Virus record (IMG/VR): IMGVR_UViG_3300045918_000470
Coordinates: 1-64,000 of that record
Origin: a virus
Direction: 5' to 3' (one strand)
DNA: 64,000 nucleotides
Notes under the pieces: model-generated
Databases searched by the model: none
Seen by the model: only the letters and a program-made list of their open reading frames with translations
What the model was told of the DNA's origin: nothing
Shown: one piece after another, positions 11,506 through 64,000 of the stretch
How the letters are laid out: the number at the start of each line of letters is the position of its first letter
How positions within the stretch are numbered: the first letter of the stretch is position 1
Translations under genes and position numbers: made by a program

Positions 11506-13810
11506 CTTGTTCTATTGCGTATTCAATATCAACATAAAGATCAGTACAACCAGTATCTAAAAGACATGAATCTACAAATCTTGCATCTTTTGGAAGATAA
11601 TCAATATCAACATAAAGATCAGTACAACCTGGTAAGCACATATCGATATATTTTTCCATGTATAGATTTTCAAAATAGAAATCTTGACAACCAGTTACAA
11701 CAGGCGCACACATTATTACATATAACGTATCAATTGTACAATCATCTTCCCAATATGCAGAATTACATTCATCCTCAGGACATGGTTCCCTCATAGGAGA
11801 CTGATATGCATTTAACGCTTGTTCTAAATAATTATCACTTACAAAATATCCAAGCTCGTGATAACCATCGTCTGCACGTGCAATGGTCGTCGCATATGTA
11901 TTTTCTGAGTTGAAATAACCCGTTCTTGTAACATATGGTTTTGCATATTTTAACTCATATACATCATTTGGCATCTCATAAGCAAATGATTCTTTTCCTA
12001 ATGTATCTAGGTATTCAATTCTTTTTAGGAATGTTCCTACTTTAACATCTGATATTTTATTGTATATATCAACGTAATAAGGTTTTCCATTATCTGCGTA
12101 GTATGGGATTACAAAATAATCATTCCCATTATCTTTTACTATAAGATATTTAAGATACGGTTGACATCCTGCACCATCAGCAAAATTCCAATCCCCATTA
12201 AATGTAAAAAATCTATGAACCTTTGGCGCATCGTAATCATAAACAAAATCAATAGAATTATATTCATCTTTGTATATAAGTTCAGTTGCGATTGGTTCAT
12301 CAACATCTGAGGTCCCTGAGATTACATTACTGCAATGAGTTGTACTAAAGAATTTTGTCTCGATTGTGAGGTTATCCTCAAAGAACAATGCATTTGGAAT
12401 ACCATGATCATAACACCCATGGGTCCATTTTACAGATGGTTTATTCAATGCAATATATCGATTAGCACCATCAAACATTTTACTTACAGTTTTATATTTT
12501 AAGTCAATGTTAAACCCACCCTTAAGGTGATCTACAAATCTGTCAATTCTTCCACTTGTTAATCGGTCAACAGTATAGTGTTTTTCAAGTAACTCATCTG
12601 AGTTAAATTTCATTACCTTATACAATTTTCTGTTTATGTCATAATAAAAATTTAAAACACCGCCATATACTAGTTCCGTATCGTCATCAGTTATTACACT
12701 AAATATCAGACTATCAATTTTATAATCAGGTGTGTAAACAGGATGAGCCTTTTTCACAAGAAACCCAATCTCATTGTAATACCTTATCTCGGTGATATAT
12801 TTGTGATTTGTTTCAAACGCAAGATTGATCAACCCATAATCTTCAAAATCTGTAAACGAATTGATATAATGTCTTTTCTCGTCTACATCAATTTCTATTC
12901 TTCGTGAATATTCCTTACTTACACCGTAATATTGTTCACACAAGATTGATTGATTAAGATTTGAAACGGGTATAATAAATGGGAACTCTGCAAAGTAAAA
13001 CACGTTACATGAAACTATTGTATTCCATTCAAGAACCTTAGATATTACATGAGCTCTTCCATGGGTATCTACACTTAATCTCATATACTGATAATTCTCT
13101 TTATCGAATCCTGATAGATATCTAGTTTTATCTTGATATACGTAAACTAATTTTTGATAATCAATAATATCATTTGAAGAATTATAATATGTTTGTTGCA
13201 TATGTACATCATATACTTTATCTTTAACATCATTGTTTACACTAATAATTTTTCTTACTAATGCATACGTCACACCAGATACGCTTGAGAATTCATTAAC
13301 AATTATTGTTTCTTTATCTGCATCCTGAATATATTCAAAAGTCCATTTTGAAACTACTACGTTTGTTTCAAATGCTCGATAATGAAGTTCTTGAATTCTT
13401 AATTTATCATTGATATCTTCATATAGAGGTGTATATTCTCCTATAACACTTCCATTATAAAACTTACGAATTTTTGATATGAAACAAAGATCAATTGTAG
13501 GATCAAAACTTGCATAATATAACATATTTCTAAAGTTTGTAAATGGTCTAATCTTACTTTTAGAGGAATCATATTCGAACACCAATCCAATATCAAGGGT
13601 TCCTTCTTTACAGATTTCATAATGAACATTATTACAATTTCTTACCTCAGGAATTGGTTTAATCTTTTCAAGGGTTGTATCTTTATGTACAGGTGGTATT
13701 AGAGCATATGGTTTACTGGGAATTCCGAAGACACGTTGAATATTTGAAGAAGCATTGAGATCAATGAACTCATACTCAAATACATTAACACTTGGACTTA
13801 AAATTGTCAT
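11477..13810 (-). CDS. Large YD-repeat-like protein with sheath-like N-terminus and Cys-rich tail
   Basis: MTILSPSVNVFE N-terminus; YYNEIGFLVK, YYDINRKLYKV; GCTDLYVDI[DE]Y twice. Confidence 0.5.
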   Translation of the reverse strand: MTILSPSVNVFEYEFIDLNASSNIQRVFGIPSKPYALIPPVHKDTTLEKIKPIPEVRNCNNVHYEICKEGTLDIGLVFEYDSSKSKIRPFTNFRNMLYYASFDPTIDLCFISKIRKFYNGSVIGEYTPLYEDINDKLRIQELHYRAFETNVVVSKWTFEYIQDADKETIIVNEFSSVSGVTYALVRKIISVNNDVKDKVYDVHMQQTYYNSSNDIIDYQKLVYVYQDKTRYLSGFDKENYQYMRLSVDTHGRAHVISKVLEWNTIVSCNVFYFAEFPFIIPVSNLNQSILCEQYYGVSKEYSRRIEIDVDEKRHYINSFTDFEDYGLINLAFETNHKYITEIRYYNEIGFLVKKAHPVYTPDYKIDSLIFSVITDDDTELVYGGVLNFYYDINRKLYKVMKFNSDELLEKHYTVDRLTSGRIDRFVDHLKGGFNIDLKYKTVSKMFDGANRYIALNKPSVKWTHGCYDHGIPNALFFEDNLTIETKFFSTTHCSNVISGTSDVDEPIATELIYKDEYNSIDFVYDYDAPKVHRFFTFNGDWNFADGAGCQPYLKYLIVKDNGNDYFVIPYYADNGKPYYVDIYNKISDVKVGTFLKRIEYLDTLGKESFAYEMPNDVYELKYAKPYVTRTGYFNSENTYATTIARADDGYHELGYFVSDNYLEQALNAYQSPMREPCPEDECNSAYWEDDCTIDTLYVIMCAPVVTGCQDFYFENLYMEKYIDMCLPGCTDLYVDIDYLPKDARFVDSCLLDTGCTDLYVDIEYAIEQDVYILCPGA

Positions 13811-59928: not shown

Positions 59929-60558
59929 TTATCCTAATGTACCAAAGACGGAATCTCTAGTTGTTGTTGATTTTGCTGCTTCTGTTTCTTGTTCTGTCTT
60001 GATGTCATTAAATACAGATGTTAGATTACTAAAATCATATTCATCATTCGGAATTAATTCTTCTACTTCATCACGTGGATTATAGTTATAGATTCTACAT
60101 TTTAACATATAGACATTTTTCCCGTTACTTTCTGTGAACATATTACTTAGACCTGCAACCTCATCCTCAATACCTGTAACCTCAAATATCTTACCTCGAT
60201 TTACACGGATAAGATCACCTACACATTGCATAATATTTTTAAAATCTGTAACATCATATATAGATTTCATATATTCTTTTGAAACCATGAGGTTGATCGA
60301 GTCAGTAAACTGTAATCCAAATTTACTAAACATATCACCGGCATTATCAAATGATTCTGTATTTTCAGGATATACCATGATAGGAAAAACATCATTTGAA
60401 TTAGATTTTCTATAGTTAAATTCATTAAAGATAATATTTCTTCCAATATTATCAATCTTAAAGTATTCAACCTGGATACCAAACTTGTCAATGAACTCTT
60501 TGCTTTGTCTGCTGAATAAATTGTATTCATTTGGGCTTGAGTTAAAGTTCCATGCCAT
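59929..60558 (-). CDS. gp14: Neck protein (gp14-like)
   Basis: EFIDKFGIQVEY..IFNE..GDMFSKFGLQ..GDLI..FEVTGIE; TATAAATA upstream (60579-60586, - strand). Confidence 0.85.
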   Translation of the reverse strand: MAWNFNSSPNEYNLFSRQSKEFIDKFGIQVEYFKIDNIGRNIIFNEFNYRKSNSNDVFPIMVYPENTESFDNAGDMFSKFGLQFTDSINLMVSKEYMKSIYDVTDFKNIMQCVGDLIRVNRGKIFEVTGIEDEVAGLSNMFTESNGKNVYMLKCRIYNYNPRDEVEELIPNDEYDFSNLTSVFNDIKTEQETEAAKSTTTRDSVFGTLG

Positions 60559-60651
60559 ATGTACTCCTTCTTTTAGTTTATTTATAATTTAATCTATTTC
60601 AAAGGTTCATTGTGTTATAATGTATTACACATTTATATATGAAGGAAACAT

Positions 60652-61041
60652 ATGTCAGTAGACACAAAATATAACCACCTACGTAATGGTACATTATATG
60701 GTGGAGCAACAATTGGTTGGTCAATTCAAGATGACGATACATTAATTACTGCATTAGCAAAATGTAATAATGTAGATCGTTTTGTAAAATCAGAAGGTAG
60801 AGTAATCGTTGATATGAGGATTAATAACTACATCGCTAATCCTGAAAAAAATACAAGCAAGTATGTTGCAGTTGTAACATTAGATGAGGTACGTGCATTT
60901 TTGTATGAAAACTCCGAGCGTGTGTTCCCAGTATTAAATCGTGATGCTACTTTGCGAGCGATTGAGTCCGTCACGATGCGTGATTTTAATTATAATACAC
61001 ATGCATTTATTACACAAGGTGTTTTTGACGAAATTCTTTAA
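60652..61041 (+). CDS. Hypothetical early protein
   Basis: TGTTATAAT at 60613; AAGGA RBS. Confidence 0.6.
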   Translation: MSVDTKYNHLRNGTLYGGATIGWSIQDDDTLITALAKCNNVDRFVKSEGRVIVDMRINNYIANPEKNTSKYVAVVTLDEVRAFLYENSERVFPVLNRDATLRAIESVTMRDFNYNTHAFITQGVFDEIL

Positions 61042-61160
61042 TTTATAAAATCTATAAATAAAACATAAGTAGTTCTTAAGGTACATTGTGTTATAATACA
61101 CGTACATAAAAAGAATAAACGAATTTTGTATCATGAATTAGTTTAAAACATTAATTTGTT

Positions 61161-61196
61161 TTTAAGCAAAGTTATGATATAATGTTCACATAAATA
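61161..61196 (+). promoter_or_regulatory. tRNA operon 1 promoter (early TTTAAG-N8-TGATATAAT, then late-like CATAAATA)
   Basis: Motifs seen directly; another early promoter at 61075-61097. Confidence 0.7.
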
Positions 61197-61223
61197 AAAA
61201 CAATAAACACATAGGAGAATATC

Positions 61224-61361
61224 ATGTTTGGTATCGAAACAAGCGCATCATCAACAATCGCAACATATCGTGATACCAGCATTATCTCTTATACATCTAC
61301 GTCTGATATTACCGATGCTTCGGCATCATATGAGATTAACTCGGCGGAAGCCAACTCCTAA
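61224..61361 (+). CDS. Putative leader (attenuator) peptide of tRNA operon 1, 45 aa
   Basis: AGGAG RBS; MFGIETSASSTIATYRDTSIISYTSTSDITDASASYEINSAEANS; 39/45 residues are S, T, I, A, Y, D or E, the amino acids of the downstream tRNAs. Confidence 0.8.
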   Translation: MFGIETSASSTIATYRDTSIISYTSTSDITDASASYEINSAEANS

Positions 61362-61403
61362 CAGAAAGTTATTTTGACTTTCTGTGATGGAAAGTCAAAA
61401 TGA
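61361..61403 (+). promoter_or_regulatory. Mutually exclusive hairpins (putative attenuator 1)
   Basis: ACAGAAAGTTA/TGACTTTCTGT versus TTATTTTGACTTTC/GAAAGTCAAAATGA. Confidence 0.7.
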
Positions 61404-61535
61404 TTCCTCAAGCACATACACGTGCAAAATTAATCAATTTTTCTTTTCATCTTGGATAAAAGTGTCGTATTCGTTTACGGCGTTCCATATTCGTATGGTC
61501 TTTTTTCTCAAGTTTTACTCAAACAACTTGTTCGT

Positions 61536-61625
61536 GGGCGGTTAATCAACACTAACTGGATAGGTGCATCGGCTGTAACCCGGTTTCTTTATGGACTCTT
61601 GGTTCGAATCCAAGGCTGCCCACCA
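61536..61625 (+). tRNA. tRNA-Tyr(GUA)
   Basis: ATCGG-CTGTAAC-CCGGT anticodon arm; TTCGAAT loop; CCA end. Confidence 0.9.
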
Positions 61626-61633
61626 TCATATAT

Positions 61634-61708
61634 GTCACCATGGAGAAGGGGTTATCTCGTCACACTTTCACTGTGAAGTCAGGGGTTCAAATCCCCTTGG
61701 TGATACCA
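61634..61708 (+). tRNA. tRNA-Glu(UUC)
   Basis: TCACA-CTTTCAC-TGTGA; CCA end. Confidence 0.9.
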
Positions 61709-61712
61709 AATT

Positions 61713-61787
61713 GGGGATATAGTATAATTGGGAATACATAAGACTTGCAATCTTGAGTCGAGGGTTCGAATCCCTCTATCTCCACCA
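61713..61787 (+). tRNA. tRNA-Ala(UGC)
   Basis: TAAGA-CTTGCAA-TCTTG; G3-U70; CCA end. Confidence 0.92.
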
Positions 61788-61800
61788 AGAATTTAAAAAT

Positions 61801-61875
61801 GGTCTTGTAGCTCAGAGGCAGAGTGCTCCGTTGTCAGCGGAAGGGTCGGGATTTCAAAATTCCTCAGGATCGCCA
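61801..61875 (+). tRNA. tRNA-Asp(GUC)
   Basis: TCCG-TTGTCAG-CGGA; GCCA end. Confidence 0.88.
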
Positions 61876-61882
61876 AAAATAT

Positions 61883-61956
61883 AGTTCTATAGCTCAATGG
61901 CAGAGTAATCCCTTGATAAGGGATAGACGAAGGGTCAGTACCTTCTAGAACTACCA
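61883..61956 (+). tRNA. tRNA-Ile(GAU)
   Basis: ATCCC-TTGATAA-GGGAT; CCA end. Confidence 0.88.
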
Positions 61957-61961
61957 AACAT

Positions 61962-62054
61962 GGGCAATTGGCAGAAATGGAATAATTGCACTAGTCTTGA
62001 AAACTAGCAGAGCGTCAAAAACTCTTGTTGGATCGTACCCAACATTGCCCGCCA
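61962..62054 (+). tRNA. tRNA-Ser(UGA)
   Basis: CTAGT-CTTGAAA-ACTAG; long variable arm; GCCA end. Confidence 0.9.
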
Positions 62055-62059
62055 AAATA

Positions 62060-62140
62060 TGTTGTTTGTAGTATAATAGTTATTACAGGAGAGAACAGTG
62101 GACACTCCAGATACGGTGCAATTCCGTCGAGCGACAACCA
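62060..62140 (+). ncRNA. tRNA-like RNA with aberrant anticodon arm
   Basis: 9-bp acceptor, D arm, GGAG-13nt-CTCC, 4-bp T stem, ACCA end. Confidence 0.6.
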
Positions 62141-62146
62141 AAATAT

Positions 62147-62222
62147 GCCGATTTAGCTCATTCAGCAGAGCAGTAGTTTTGTAAACTACAGGTGAGGGGA
62201 GCAAAGCCTCTAATCGGCACCA
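62147..62222 (+). tRNA. tRNA-Thr(UGU)
   Basis: GTAGT-TTTGTAA-ACTAC; CCA end. Confidence 0.88.
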
Positions 62223-62301
62223 GATTGATTTTTATGAAGGGTCTATTTCTTAAATGAAAATCTTTCACAAAAGTTAATAAATTCATAGAATTTAATCTAA
62301 C

Positions 62302-62368
62302 TTTAAGCTATACTATGTTATAATGTCTGTACATAAAAAGAAAAACATAGTTTTTCAAAACATAAATA
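62302..62368 (+). promoter_or_regulatory. tRNA operon 2 promoter (early TTTAAG-N8-TGTTATAAT, then late-like CATAAATA)
   Basis: Same architecture as the operon 1 promoter. Confidence 0.7.
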
Positions 62369-62393
62369 AAACAATAAAAACAAGGAGCACACA

Positions 62394-62564
62394 ATGTGTA
62401 ACACAAGCAGCAACGTACAAAATGTTAATGTCAATGTATTAAATCGCAATAGCGTGCTCCGTGCTAGTCAACTGAATTTGGCAGGGTTAAGCTTAGGGCA
62501 AAATCAAGCAGTTCAAAGTTGGTTAAATACTTCTAATTCTCTTTTACAGAATACTTCAATCTAA
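62394..62564 (+). CDS. Putative leader (attenuator) peptide of tRNA operon 2, 56 aa
   Basis: AAGGAG RBS; MCNTSSNVQNVNVNVLNRNSVLRASQLNLAGLSLGQNQAVQSWLNTSNSLLQNTSI; rich in N, L, S, Q and V. Confidence 0.8.
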   Translation: MCNTSSNVQNVNVNVLNRNSVLRASQLNLAGLSLGQNQAVQSWLNTSNSLLQNTSI

Positions 62565-62598
62565 GTTTTCTTTAAAGGGGATTTAGTTCCCCTTTAAA
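62533..62598 (+). promoter_or_regulatory. Mutually exclusive hairpins (putative attenuator 2)
   Basis: TTTAAAGGGGA/TCCCCTTTAAA versus CTAATTCTCTTTTA/TAAAGGGGATTTAG (13 of 14 paired). Confidence 0.65.
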
Positions 62599-62672
62599 TG
62601 ATAAACAAAAACCAATCATTTAAAACACTAAATTCTCTATTGTTAATTCAATTTTTTCTTAGAATTCTCAGT

Positions 62673-62760
62673 TCTCTACAGCGCGCAAGGTGTGCGAGGC
62701 GACTGTTAATCGTTTGGCGAGAGTTAAATCCGATGCTTGGTTCGATTCCAAGGTGGAGAG
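62673..62760 (+). tRNA. tRNA-Asn(GUU), long extra arm, no encoded CCA
   Basis: GGCGA-CTGTTAA-TCGTT; TTCGATT loop; U1-A72, G73. Confidence 0.8.
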
Positions 62761-62794
62761 CTGAGAATTCAAGAAATCTATTAGATAACTTCGC

Positions 62795-62867
62795 TCAAGA
62801 GTAGGCAAACTGGTATGCCAACGGTCTTTGAAGCCGTAGATTGTAGGTTCGAACCCTGCCTCTTGAG
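62795..62867 (+). tRNA. tRNA-Gln(UUG), no encoded CCA
   Basis: ACGGT-CTTTGAA-GCCGT; TTCGAAC loop; U1-A72, G73. Confidence 0.87.
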
Positions 62868-62934
62868 CGAAGTTATCTATTTAGAATATAGGACGTATTA
62901 CTTTGAAAATGATAAATAAAGTATATATTTATCT

Positions 62935-63738
62935 AGGAACTACACTTTACATTATGATAACTTAATCAATAGAGCTAAAGAAAGAACTCTTGAAAGTTAC
63001 ACCGAATCTCATCATATAATACCACGTTGTTTAGGTGGTACAAATGATAAAGATAATTTAGTTGACTTAACAACAAGAGAACATTTTATAGCTCATTTGT
63101 TATTGTGGAAGATACATCCTAATCATTATGGTTTAGTTAAAGCTATTTCTATAATGTGTGTTCAATCTACTAATATGAACGAAAATCGTTCTTGTAATAG
63201 AATGTATGGATGGTTAAAGGAAAAATTTTCAGAAGCTCAATCTTTATCTCAATCGGGTGATGGTAATAGTCAATTCGGTACTATGTGGATTCATAATTTA
63301 GATTTAAAAGAGTCTAAGAAGATACCTAAATCTGATGAAATACCTTTAGGATGGAATAAAGGTCGTAAAATTAAATTCGATCTTGAAAATATAAAGAAAG
63401 AAATTAAAGATCAAATCAAAGAGAGAAACAAAAATAAACTTGAAGAAAAACTTCAAGAAAAGAGAAATTCTTTCCTAGATATATTTGAAGCTTATAAAGC
63501 TTATGGATACAAATATGTTATTGAAAATTTTGATTATGATAAATCTGAAGGTGTTTTATATTCAAAATTGAAAACTCTTTTTGGAGAATTTAAAAAACAA
63601 TATGAAGTGAAAATTGATAGATTTTATATTTGTCAAGAATGTAAATGTACCTTCACGAAAAAAGGGAAGTCTACAGATAATTTTAAATGTTGTAGTAGAA
63701 AATGTTCTGGTTTATTGAATAGACCGAAATTTGGATAA
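62935..63738 (+). CDS. HNH homing endonuclease; expected start codon reads AGG
   Basis: Frame open upstream of the track start 63097: (R)NYTLHYDNLINRAKER..ESHHIIPRCLGGTNDKDNLVDLTTREHFIAHLLL. Confidence 0.8.
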   Translation, partial: RNYTLHYDNLINRAKERTLESYTESHHIIPRCLGGTNDKDNLVDLTTREHFIAHLLLWKIHPNHYGLVKAISIMCVQSTNMNENRSCNRMYGWLKEKFSEAQSLSQSGDGNSQFGTMWIHNLDLKESKKIPKSDEIPLGWNKGRKIKFDLENIKKEIKDQIKERNKNKLEEKLQEKRNSFLDIFEAYKAYGYKYVIENFDYDKSEGVLYSKLKTLFGEFKKQYEVKIDRFYICQECKCTFTKKGKSTDNFKCCSRKCSGLLNRPKFG

Positions 63739-63743
63739 AATAT

Positions 63744-63820
63744 GCTCGTCTAGTGCAACGGTAGACGCATCAGACTTAAAATCTGTCCAGGTGTGGGTTC
63801 GAATCCCACGGCGAGCACCA
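63744..63820 (+). tRNA. tRNA-Leu(UAA), short variable region
   Basis: CAGA-CTTAAAA-TCTG; TTCGAAT loop; ACCA end. Confidence 0.85.
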
Positions 63821-63831
63821 AAATTATAAAT

Positions 63832-63905
63832 GCTTCCTTAGTGAAATGGTATCACACCTTCCTTCCAAGTAGGAGTCGTCGGATCGTTACCGACAGGACG
63901 CACCA
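63832..63905 (+). tRNA. tRNA-Gly(UCC)
   Basis: CCTTC-CTTCCAA-GTAGG; CCA end. Confidence 0.82.
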
Positions 63906-63907
63906 AT

Positions 63908-63982
63908 GCCAGATTAACTCAAAAGTAGAGTGTTTCCCTTACAAGGAGAAAGTAGTAGGAGCGTTACCTACATCTGGTACCA
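63908..63982 (+). tRNA. tRNA-Val(UAC)
   Basis: TTTCC-CTTACAA-GGAGA; CCA end. Confidence 0.87.
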
Positions 63983-64000
63983 AAAAATGTTCCTGTACTC

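Follow-up and report, generated by a model that had tools for sequence, protein, structure and literature searches.

A putative ribosome-operated RNA switch of the leader-peptide attenuator type ahead of a phage tRNA gene array

To our knowledge, almost nothing is known about how phages control their tRNA genes. Why phages carry such genes at all is debated, with codon compensation on one side and escape from tRNA-targeting defences on the other (PMC10264068). The stretch of DNA analysed here (the window) comprises positions 1 to 64,000 of IMG/VR virus record IMGVR_UViG_3300045918_000470, a record of 77.8 kb with 33% G+C. About 30 tRNA genes stand in blocks from 61.5 kb onward in this genome, and the first block, array 1, is preceded by a short ORF that public data annotate as a hypothetical protein. 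A preliminary description of the same DNA had claimed that this ORF, leader 1, matches its tRNA operon at the codon level and ends in a pair of switchable hairpins. The locus thus raises the question of what a short ORF of biased composition does in front of tRNA genes, and whether the RNA behind it could link their expression to translation.

The major head protein of the phage is 49% identical to homologues from T4-like Vibrio and Campylobacter phages. Metagenomes from wetlands and ponds contain DNA nearly identical to the window, and those from vents, sediments and mats contain related DNA. Among GenBank phages megablast gave no close relatives of the window, and blastn gave only homing-endonuclease matches. 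A diverged relative was reached through alignment of neck-protein homologues, its neck protein being 63% identical to that of the window; it is represented by four IMG/VR contigs (L003-L006) that are identical to each other over both leader regions. Synteny is kept in the relative, with the neck gene followed by a 129-aa ORF and then by tRNA blocks. Queries with the 129-aa ORF, the neck protein alone or the leader alignment returned no further relatives, and DNA patterns built on the promoter, the hairpin and tRNA-Tyr, run against viral, metagenome and genome collections, returned either nothing or the same four contigs only. The leader comparisons below therefore cover two lineages and three alleles.

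Array 1 runs in the order Tyr(GUA), Glu, Ala, Asp, Ile(GAU), Ser(UGA), an odd tRNA-like element and Thr(UGU) (Table 1). Its first gene is a real tRNA-Tyr(GUA), though default ARAGORN and Rfam miss it; it shares 90% identity with the copy in the relative, against which its acceptor stem shows covariation. Leader ORF 1 lies 175 nt 5' of this gene. The layout of a promoter, a 5' leader and a short ORF occurs at only two places in the genome, the second being module 2, described below, and the other tRNA groups of this phage are without such leader ORFs.

Table 1. Features of the leader 1 region, array 1 and module 2, in window coordinates
Feature	Position	Strand	Basis or remark
Promoter-like site P1a, extended -10, TGTTATAAT	61089..61097	+	Genome motif scan
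Proximal promoter-like site P1b, extended -10, TGATATAAT, then CATAAATAAAA motif	61175..61183	+	Sequence
Shine-Dalgarno AGGAG, 6 nt 5' of ATG	61213..61217	+	Sequence; ACATAGGAGA identical in relative
Leader ORF 1, 45 codons plus TAA	61224..61361	+	39/45 residues in S, T, I, A, Y, D, E
Hairpin A (segments 1:2), 11 bp, 3-nt loop	61361..61385	+	-11.9 kcal/mol, z -5.1
Hairpin B (segments 2:3), 17 bp including 3 G-U	61367..61405	+	-18.0 kcal/mol, z -6.4
Third helix (segments 3:4)	61386..61451	+	-19.2 kcal/mol, z -5.0; completes putative four-segment switch
Third helix, outer stem	61386-94/61443-51	+	Folding
Third helix, inner stems	61397-99/61438-40 and 61401-05/61432-36	+	Folding
Third helix, apical hairpin	61412-15/61422-25	+	Folding
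U-rich run AUUUUUCUUUUCAUCUU, 3' strand and tail of third helix	61437..61453	+	Sequence
Two small hairpins, 61464-81 and 61485-98 (UUCG loop), then UCUUUUUUCUC	61464..61510	+	-10.2 kcal/mol, z -3.3
tRNA-Tyr(GUA), class II, first gene of array 1	61536..61625	+	ARAGORN at relaxed threshold plus manual cloverleaf
tRNA-Glu(UUC), Ala(UGC), Asp(GUC), Ile(GAU), Ser(UGA)	61634..62054	+	ARAGORN, Rfam RF00005
tRNA-like element, 13-nt anticodon loop	62061..62146	+	ARAGORN only with 6-nt 'intron'
tRNA-Thr(UGU), last gene of array 1	62147..62222	+	ARAGORN, Rfam RF00005
Paralogous module 2: promoter TGTTATAAT, AAGGAG, leader ORF 2, alternative helices	62316..62628	+	Motif scan, composition, folding
Leader ORF 2, N12 S9 L9 V6 Q6	62394-62564	+	Composition
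Leader 2 alternative helices	62533-86, 62569-600, 62593-624	+	Folding; topology same as leader 1

Two promoter-like sites precede leader ORF 1. In a motif scan of the genome the P1a motif was also found to head leader 2 (at 62316) and several other genes, and the extended -10 of P1b is kept at the equivalent place in the relative. The Shine-Dalgarno sequence of leader ORF 1 is a strong one, and both it and the ATG are kept in that phage too. The CATAAATAAAA motif that follows P1b was seen at 61189, 62361, 54999 and 20959, directly 5' of both leaders, the major head gene and one other gene. Since this motif resembles the T4 late promoter TATAAATA, the leaders may carry early-type and late-type promoters together.

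The residues of leader 1 are S11, T7, I6, A6, E3, Y3 and D3, with M1, F1, G1, R1 and N2 making up the remainder, and array 1 encodes tRNAs for exactly those first seven amino acids. Among the 77,520 possible sets of seven amino acids, that of array 1 is the only one to reach the count given in Table 1, and the best other 45-residue window in the 62 long ORFs of the phage holds at most 32 residues of the set (binomial P for the match of leader and array, 9e-9). Cross-controls, in which leader 1 was set against array 2 and leader 2 against array 1, were unremarkable. Under strict wobble the array 1 tRNAs would read just 29 of the 45 leader codons, which we count against a switch. The seven residue counts of the preliminary description proved exact on recount, and its match between leader and operon stands at the level of the amino-acid set. 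It had also argued from codons, and here the counts are true and the arguments, taken alone, are not significant. All six Ile codons are indeed ATC (three) or ATT (three), with no ATA, which does not depart from the codon usage of this phage (P of no ATA among six Ile, 0.12); nine of the eleven Ser codons are TCN (TCA three, TCT three, TCG two, TCC one, with AGC two), which is ordinary for the genome (P 0.44). The ORF has no Pfam-like or PHROG family match, and protein searches with both versions of leader 1 returned one allele and nothing further.

Behind the stop codon the RNA can fold in two ways. Hairpin A was confirmed by folding as it had been described, starting on the last base of the TAA stop. 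Hairpin B is real as well, and its extent has to be revised from about 14 bp at 61369-61403 to that in Table 1. For either hairpin none of 200 shuffled sequences folded as well. The two overlap at 61367-61385 and cannot coexist, so the earlier view of them as alternatives sharing a segment holds, and covariation (below) supports both. Absent from that view was the third helix, which is conserved and with which B competes: full-length B occupies 61397-61405, the 5' strand of the third helix, and also excludes its base. Hairpin A and the third helix together are the global minimum at -31.1 kcal/mol (z -8.6), and B excludes both. When the stop codon and the following 10 nt were forced to stay unpaired, as under a ribosome at the stop, the predicted fold flipped from A to B in both phages, in keeping with the masking step proposed earlier. 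Direct-path estimates put the refolding barriers at about 14 kcal/mol from A to B and 17 kcal/mol from B to A plus the third helix; with barriers of this height, whichever fold forms first should persist while polymerase crosses the spacer.

How either fold might end transcription is less obvious. Hairpin B is followed by CCUCAAGC, and there is no U-tract behind it and no canonical intrinsic terminator with either fold. The only terminator-like tract tied to the switch is the U-rich run at 61437-61453, which lies behind the third helix in both phages, the relative having UUAUUUCAUUUU at the equivalent place; the stem that adjoins the run is AU-rich and weak, at about -7 kcal/mol. The preliminary description had cast B as the terminating element, and the classical layout would point the opposite way: with no U-tract behind B and the U-rich run behind the third helix, B could be the antiterminator. 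Its caveat that the weak tract after B would leave pausing, Rho or RNA processing as the mode of action still applies. The segment 61406-61460 (C12, G5) is enclosed by the third helix in the A state, and about 50 nt of this C-rich, G-poor RNA would be freed in the B state. A similar stretch, 62599-62672 (C12, G4), is the only one that was ranked, and its excess of C over G lies within the top 7% of genome windows. The two small hairpins of 61464-61510 are poorly conserved in the relative and probably not the regulated element; the second, the UUCG hairpin with its T-tract (61485-61510), was considered as a regulated terminator and rejected for this reason and for being unlinked to the A/B switch. 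A hairpin stands directly 5' of tRNA-Tyr in both phages.

Two further versions of leader 1 are available, JGI protein P0002 and a haplotype traced in contigs of three unrelated metagenomes. The haplotype differs from the window at 20 of the 138 ORF bases, giving 11 residue changes and two silent ones, and some codons are replaced whole; nine of the 11 new residues belong to the seven-residue set. Counted over the alleles as independent replacements, 11 of 13 land in that set (P 0.004). Across 61342-61418, the region of the hairpins, the haplotype has no difference in 77 bases (P 6e-6 at the rate of the ORF), and up to tRNA-Glu it differs at 7 of 305. This is the pattern that a leader should present if its codons matter and its peptide does not.

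Separately, the order of modules around this locus differs in relatives, possibly with another tRNA block 5' of leader 1: contigs in two metagenomes pass from 62283 to 61076 across 10 other bases, and another contig omits 60909-61065. At 61798, one related lineage, from metagenome run X4, has a different tRNA gene straight after tRNA-Ala, and leader alleles in runs X4, X6 and X8 gain Leu and Asn codons.

Over the longer distance to the diverged relative the ORF has changed far more. Its leader 1' has 41 codons and shares only 26% of residues and 53% of bases with leader 1, in flanks that are 64-69% identical, and yet 34 of the 41 residues, including all of the last 23, fall within the seven-residue set of leader 1 (a mark reached by 10 of 77,520 sets). 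The array behind it covers these seven isotypes too, carries two genes each for Tyr, Asp and Ile, and adds a CAU tRNA; in leader 1' Tyr occurs six times, and an internal Met and ATA once each, against three Tyr, no internal Met and no ATA in leader 1. All three helices are kept, at -10.4, -17.6 and -18.4 kcal/mol, and the stop codon abuts hairpin A within 1 nt in both phages, A in the relative beginning 1 nt past the stop. A helix-by-helix table of the window against the relative contains eight compensatory double changes (two each in A, B, the outer stem of the third helix and its apical stem) and one broken pair; a ninth double change, in the basal stem of the third helix, was found by manual re-reading of the window structure and stands outside that table. 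Four of the positions, 61363, 61383, 61389 and 61448, have changed together in a way that preserves a pair in A (61363:61383), one in B (61383:61389) and one in the third helix (61389:61448). Such a chained change would be difficult to account for if any of the three pairings went unused. Taken together, these comparisons indicate that the leader 1 feature is real, non-random and under selection for composition and for RNA structure.

Module 2 repeats the arrangement with different contents. Leader 2 precedes genes for Asn, Gln, an HNH gene, Leu, Gly, Val, three Leu, Asn, Cys and a second HNH gene, after which array 2 continues with Ser(GCU), an Ile(UAU)-like gene and Trp. Its composition fits array 2 on the residues N, Q, L, G and V (44 of 15,504 sets) and does not fit array 1. 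AGY accounts for six of the nine Ser codons, more than genome usage would predict (P 0.011), and tRNA-Ser(GCU), the cognate of AGY codons, lies at 65314-65404 of the genome. The relative's leader 2' (N15 L7 Q4 V3 G2 C1 W1) likewise matches its own array, which reads Asn, Asn, Val, Cys, Gly, Gly, Leu, Leu, Leu, Gln, Leu, Trp. No AGY codon is present in leader 2', where AAY (Asn) or a gap stands in place of the window's AGY, and no Ser(GCU) gene was found in the 22 kb downstream; a 'tRNA-???' call between the two Asn genes is not Ser(GCU) and was dismissed as an artefact with 25% GC. As far as the two phages indicate, then, AGY serine codons in leader 2 occur only in the phage whose array 2 has tRNA-Ser(GCU), and it is on leader 2 and on the relative that the codon-level case rests. 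All gaps between leaders 2 and 2' are multiples of three. Leader composition has thus followed tRNA content while the frames stayed open and the sequences drifted.

The RNA of module 2 differs in detail from that of leader 1. Segment 1 falls within the last ten codons of leader 2, and the stop codon lies between segments 1 and 2. The strong hairpin is followed by UGAUAAAC, which is not a canonical terminator, and the counterpart of the third helix is without a U-tract. Within array 2, the tRNA-Asn(GUU) in the region 62673-62885 has 89 nt and a long variable arm, unusual for Asn, and the gene is kept in the relative; it and the tRNA-Gln of the same region have no encoded CCA and lie inside long extended acceptor helices. 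The two HNH homing-endonuclease genes that interrupt the array (62900-63738, and 64600-65330 of the genome) look like recent mobile insertions, since neither site is interrupted in the relative's array; in the first gene, no ATG, GTG or TTG stands 5' of the HNH motif.

A leader ORF with a ribosome-binding site, enrichment in particular codons and mutually exclusive helices, the usual marks of an attenuator, can all be recognised in this sequence. We propose that leader 1 acts as an RNA switch operated by ribosomes, a leader-peptide type of attenuator, set before a phage tRNA operon and most likely working by negative feedback, a reading to which we give a somewhat better than even chance. From the sequence we infer that the ORF is translated, that the fold acts on transcription, in which direction, and what the effector is. 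An early-type promoter would yield an RNA headed by the 45-codon ORF, which would be well initiated and uses the seven amino acids of the array. The RNA 3' of the stop would then take one of two kinetically locked folds, A with the third helix as the default or ground state, or B. For the latter to form, segment 1, at the stop codon, would have to be covered by a ribosome as segments 2 and 3 leave the polymerase. Because A can fold once 61385 has emerged, B would need a ribosome already at the end of the ORF, and hence tight coupling. That ribosome must have read all 45 codons without lag, so that the fold would report the decoding speed of these codons; from known ribosome footprint sizes, a lag anywhere among them is expected to give A. 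Slow decoding would thus lead to A plus the third helix and to more tRNA, and fast decoding to B and to less. The off step may lie in exposure of the C-rich, G-poor spacer to Rho, in pausing or in processing; the idea of Rho is a weak one because the excess of C over G is only within the top 7% of the genome. Overall, the leader probably tunes the supply of phage tRNA to the speed at which ribosomes decode. More tentatively, and at a little less than an even chance, each phage tRNA block may have a dedicated gauge, a test ORF in the codons of that block which raises transcription of those tRNAs when it is read slowly. Such a test ORF would time ribosomes against RNA polymerase, and tRNA would be measured through translation of the leader, again with negative feedback.

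The same switch could also be wired the other way, as in the trp and pyrBI geometry, with the third helix and its U-rich tail terminating and B antiterminating. A ribosome that paces polymerase at the end of the ORF would then bring about read-through and a lagging or absent one termination, which would make the leader a coupling checkpoint or a self-reinforcing loop. Several features suit this arrangement: A with the third helix is the ground state, like 1:2 plus 3:4 in trp-type leaders; the sole switch-linked U-rich run comes after the third helix in both phages; B sequesters the 5' strand of the third helix; and leader 2 resembles trpL in having its stop codon between the first two segments. 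The stem beside the run is, however, the AU-rich one of about -7 kcal/mol, and the matching helix of leader 2 is without a U-tract. Moreover, given the known footprint size, segment 1 would be masked only with codons 44-45 or the stop in the A site, and codon 44 is an out-of-set Asn. Since only those codons would count, the arrangement gives no reason for writing the whole ORF in the amino acids of the array, and it would amount to positive feedback on tRNA supply, for which we see no obvious regulatory benefit. We regard it as unlikely, and on sequence alone negative feedback is the clearly favoured, though putative, sign among the switch models.

Two explanations would dispense with sensing. 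The ORF might be translated so as to shield the 5' part of the transcript from Rho or RNases, or to aid processing of the tRNA precursor, its phage-tRNA codons keeping it translated when host tRNAs fail. It would agree with such a role that the whole 175-nt spacer, beyond A and B, is kept among close alleles (the 7 differences in 305 nt), and that the hairpin right before tRNA-Tyr is present in both phages; that the other tRNA groups of the phage work without such ORFs is also in its favour. Left unexplained, though, are the match of each leader to its own array rather than to the whole tRNA set of the phage, as the cross-controls bring out, and the mutually exclusive helices kept by chained covariation, and we think this role improbable. 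That an ordinary gene for a small Ser/Thr-rich protein happens to lie before the tRNAs, with hairpins that stabilise or terminate its own mRNA, is far less probable still. The good ribosome-binding site and the public annotation as a hypothetical protein are what one would expect of such a gene, and small ORFs are common among phage tRNA genes, T5 being an example. Yet close alleles differ by 11 residue changes against two silent ones and the relative shares just 26% of residues, which amounts to no selection on the protein sequence; the ORF has no family, and a match of composition reached by 1 of 77,520 sets is replicated three more times. We screened the tRNA genes of T5 for leader-like ORFs and set its 14 small ORFs aside, their compositions being ordinary and without a match to the tRNAs.

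The preferred reading, a negative-feedback switch, has its closest structural parallels in multivalent leader-peptide attenuators of enterobacteria, such as thrL (Thr, Ile) and ilvL (Ile, Leu, Val), together with trpL, hisL, leuL, pheL and pheM of pheST. There too a short ORF is rich in the sensed codons, and the position of the ribosome chooses between 1:2 plus 3:4, the ground state, and 2:3. The present case differs in that tRNA genes would be controlled rather than biosynthetic or synthetase genes, and in a phage genome; in the spread of seven amino acids over a whole 45-codon ORF with the stop codon 5' of segment 1; and in having no GC-rich terminator with a U-tract. On that last count it is closer to leader ORFs of Rho-dependent attenuation, namely mgtL/mgtA and the corA leader of Salmonella and tnaC of E. 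coli, which sense Mg2+, proline or tryptophan and control protein genes. In these systems translation of a short ORF selects the fold of the leader and no intrinsic terminator is needed, which fits a hairpin B that lacks a U-tract and is followed by a C-rich, G-poor stretch; in the phage, unlike them, the skew is only moderate, the role of Rho is putative and tRNA genes rather than protein genes lie downstream. T-box riboswitches sense the charging of specific tRNAs and control translation-related genes through terminator and antiterminator folds. They differ from leader 1 in binding tRNA directly and having no ORF, and no Rfam T-box match was found in 60500-64000 at E values up to 1. Rfam gave nothing at the leader region; a subthreshold Thr_leader match on the minus strand (60844-61010) falls inside a coding region and was discarded.

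Cysteine-responsive short-ORF attenuators of mycobacteria, triggered when VapC4 cuts tRNA-Cys, offer a further comparison (bioRxiv 10.1101/834739; Barth et al. 2021, as cited in PMC10264068). In the outline that these reports give, a short ORF rich in a single type of codon turns the loss of a tRNA or amino acid into stalling and altered downstream expression. As outlined there, those attenuators are cellular, respond to a single amino acid and serve protein-coding operons, whereas in the phage the supply of tRNA would feed back on the sensor. Functionally, the closest published parallel is the stress-induced trn operon of Anabaena PCC 7120, a long and likewise spare tRNA array that is switched on when translation is impaired (PMC8421152; PMC10272220); its promoter is controlled by direct repeats and the repressor TrcR, and the paper on it mentions no leader or attenuator. 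No description of leader peptides or attenuators in connection with phage tRNA genes or tRNA arrays turned up in full-text literature searches. Leader 1 is best described, on present comparisons, as leader-peptide attenuation applied to tRNA genes.

If true, this would be the first cis-acting sensor to link decoding speed to the output of tRNA genes, and it would extend the principle of the trp operon from amino-acid supply to tRNA supply. A phage so equipped could answer codon mismatch with its host, host shut-off or tRNA-cutting defences block by block. The two paralogous modules and the relative's versions of them suggest a sensor that is re-written as tRNA content changes, and its codons may show which host tRNAs the phage expects to lose. 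The leader might also offer a portable part for reporting the decoding speed of a chosen codon set, and the switch makes predictions that are testable by codon swaps and by compensatory mutants of the stems.

Two smaller observations concern the arrays themselves. In the tRNA-like element between tRNA-Ser(UGA) and tRNA-Thr(UGU), the acceptor, D and T arms are normal and only the 13-nt anticodon loop is odd; the element is 90% identical over 51 nt to a sequence of the relative (L003, reverse strand, 13098-13148). Nearby on the same contig (L003, reverse strand, 12707-12763) is an 18-codon ORF, MMETDISDIRNILYARIA, which has no counterpart in the window. Its AGGAG is strong, three of its codons are ATA, and it extends into the 5' end of tRNA-Ile(UAU), by which ATA is read; it may be a third, miniature leader.
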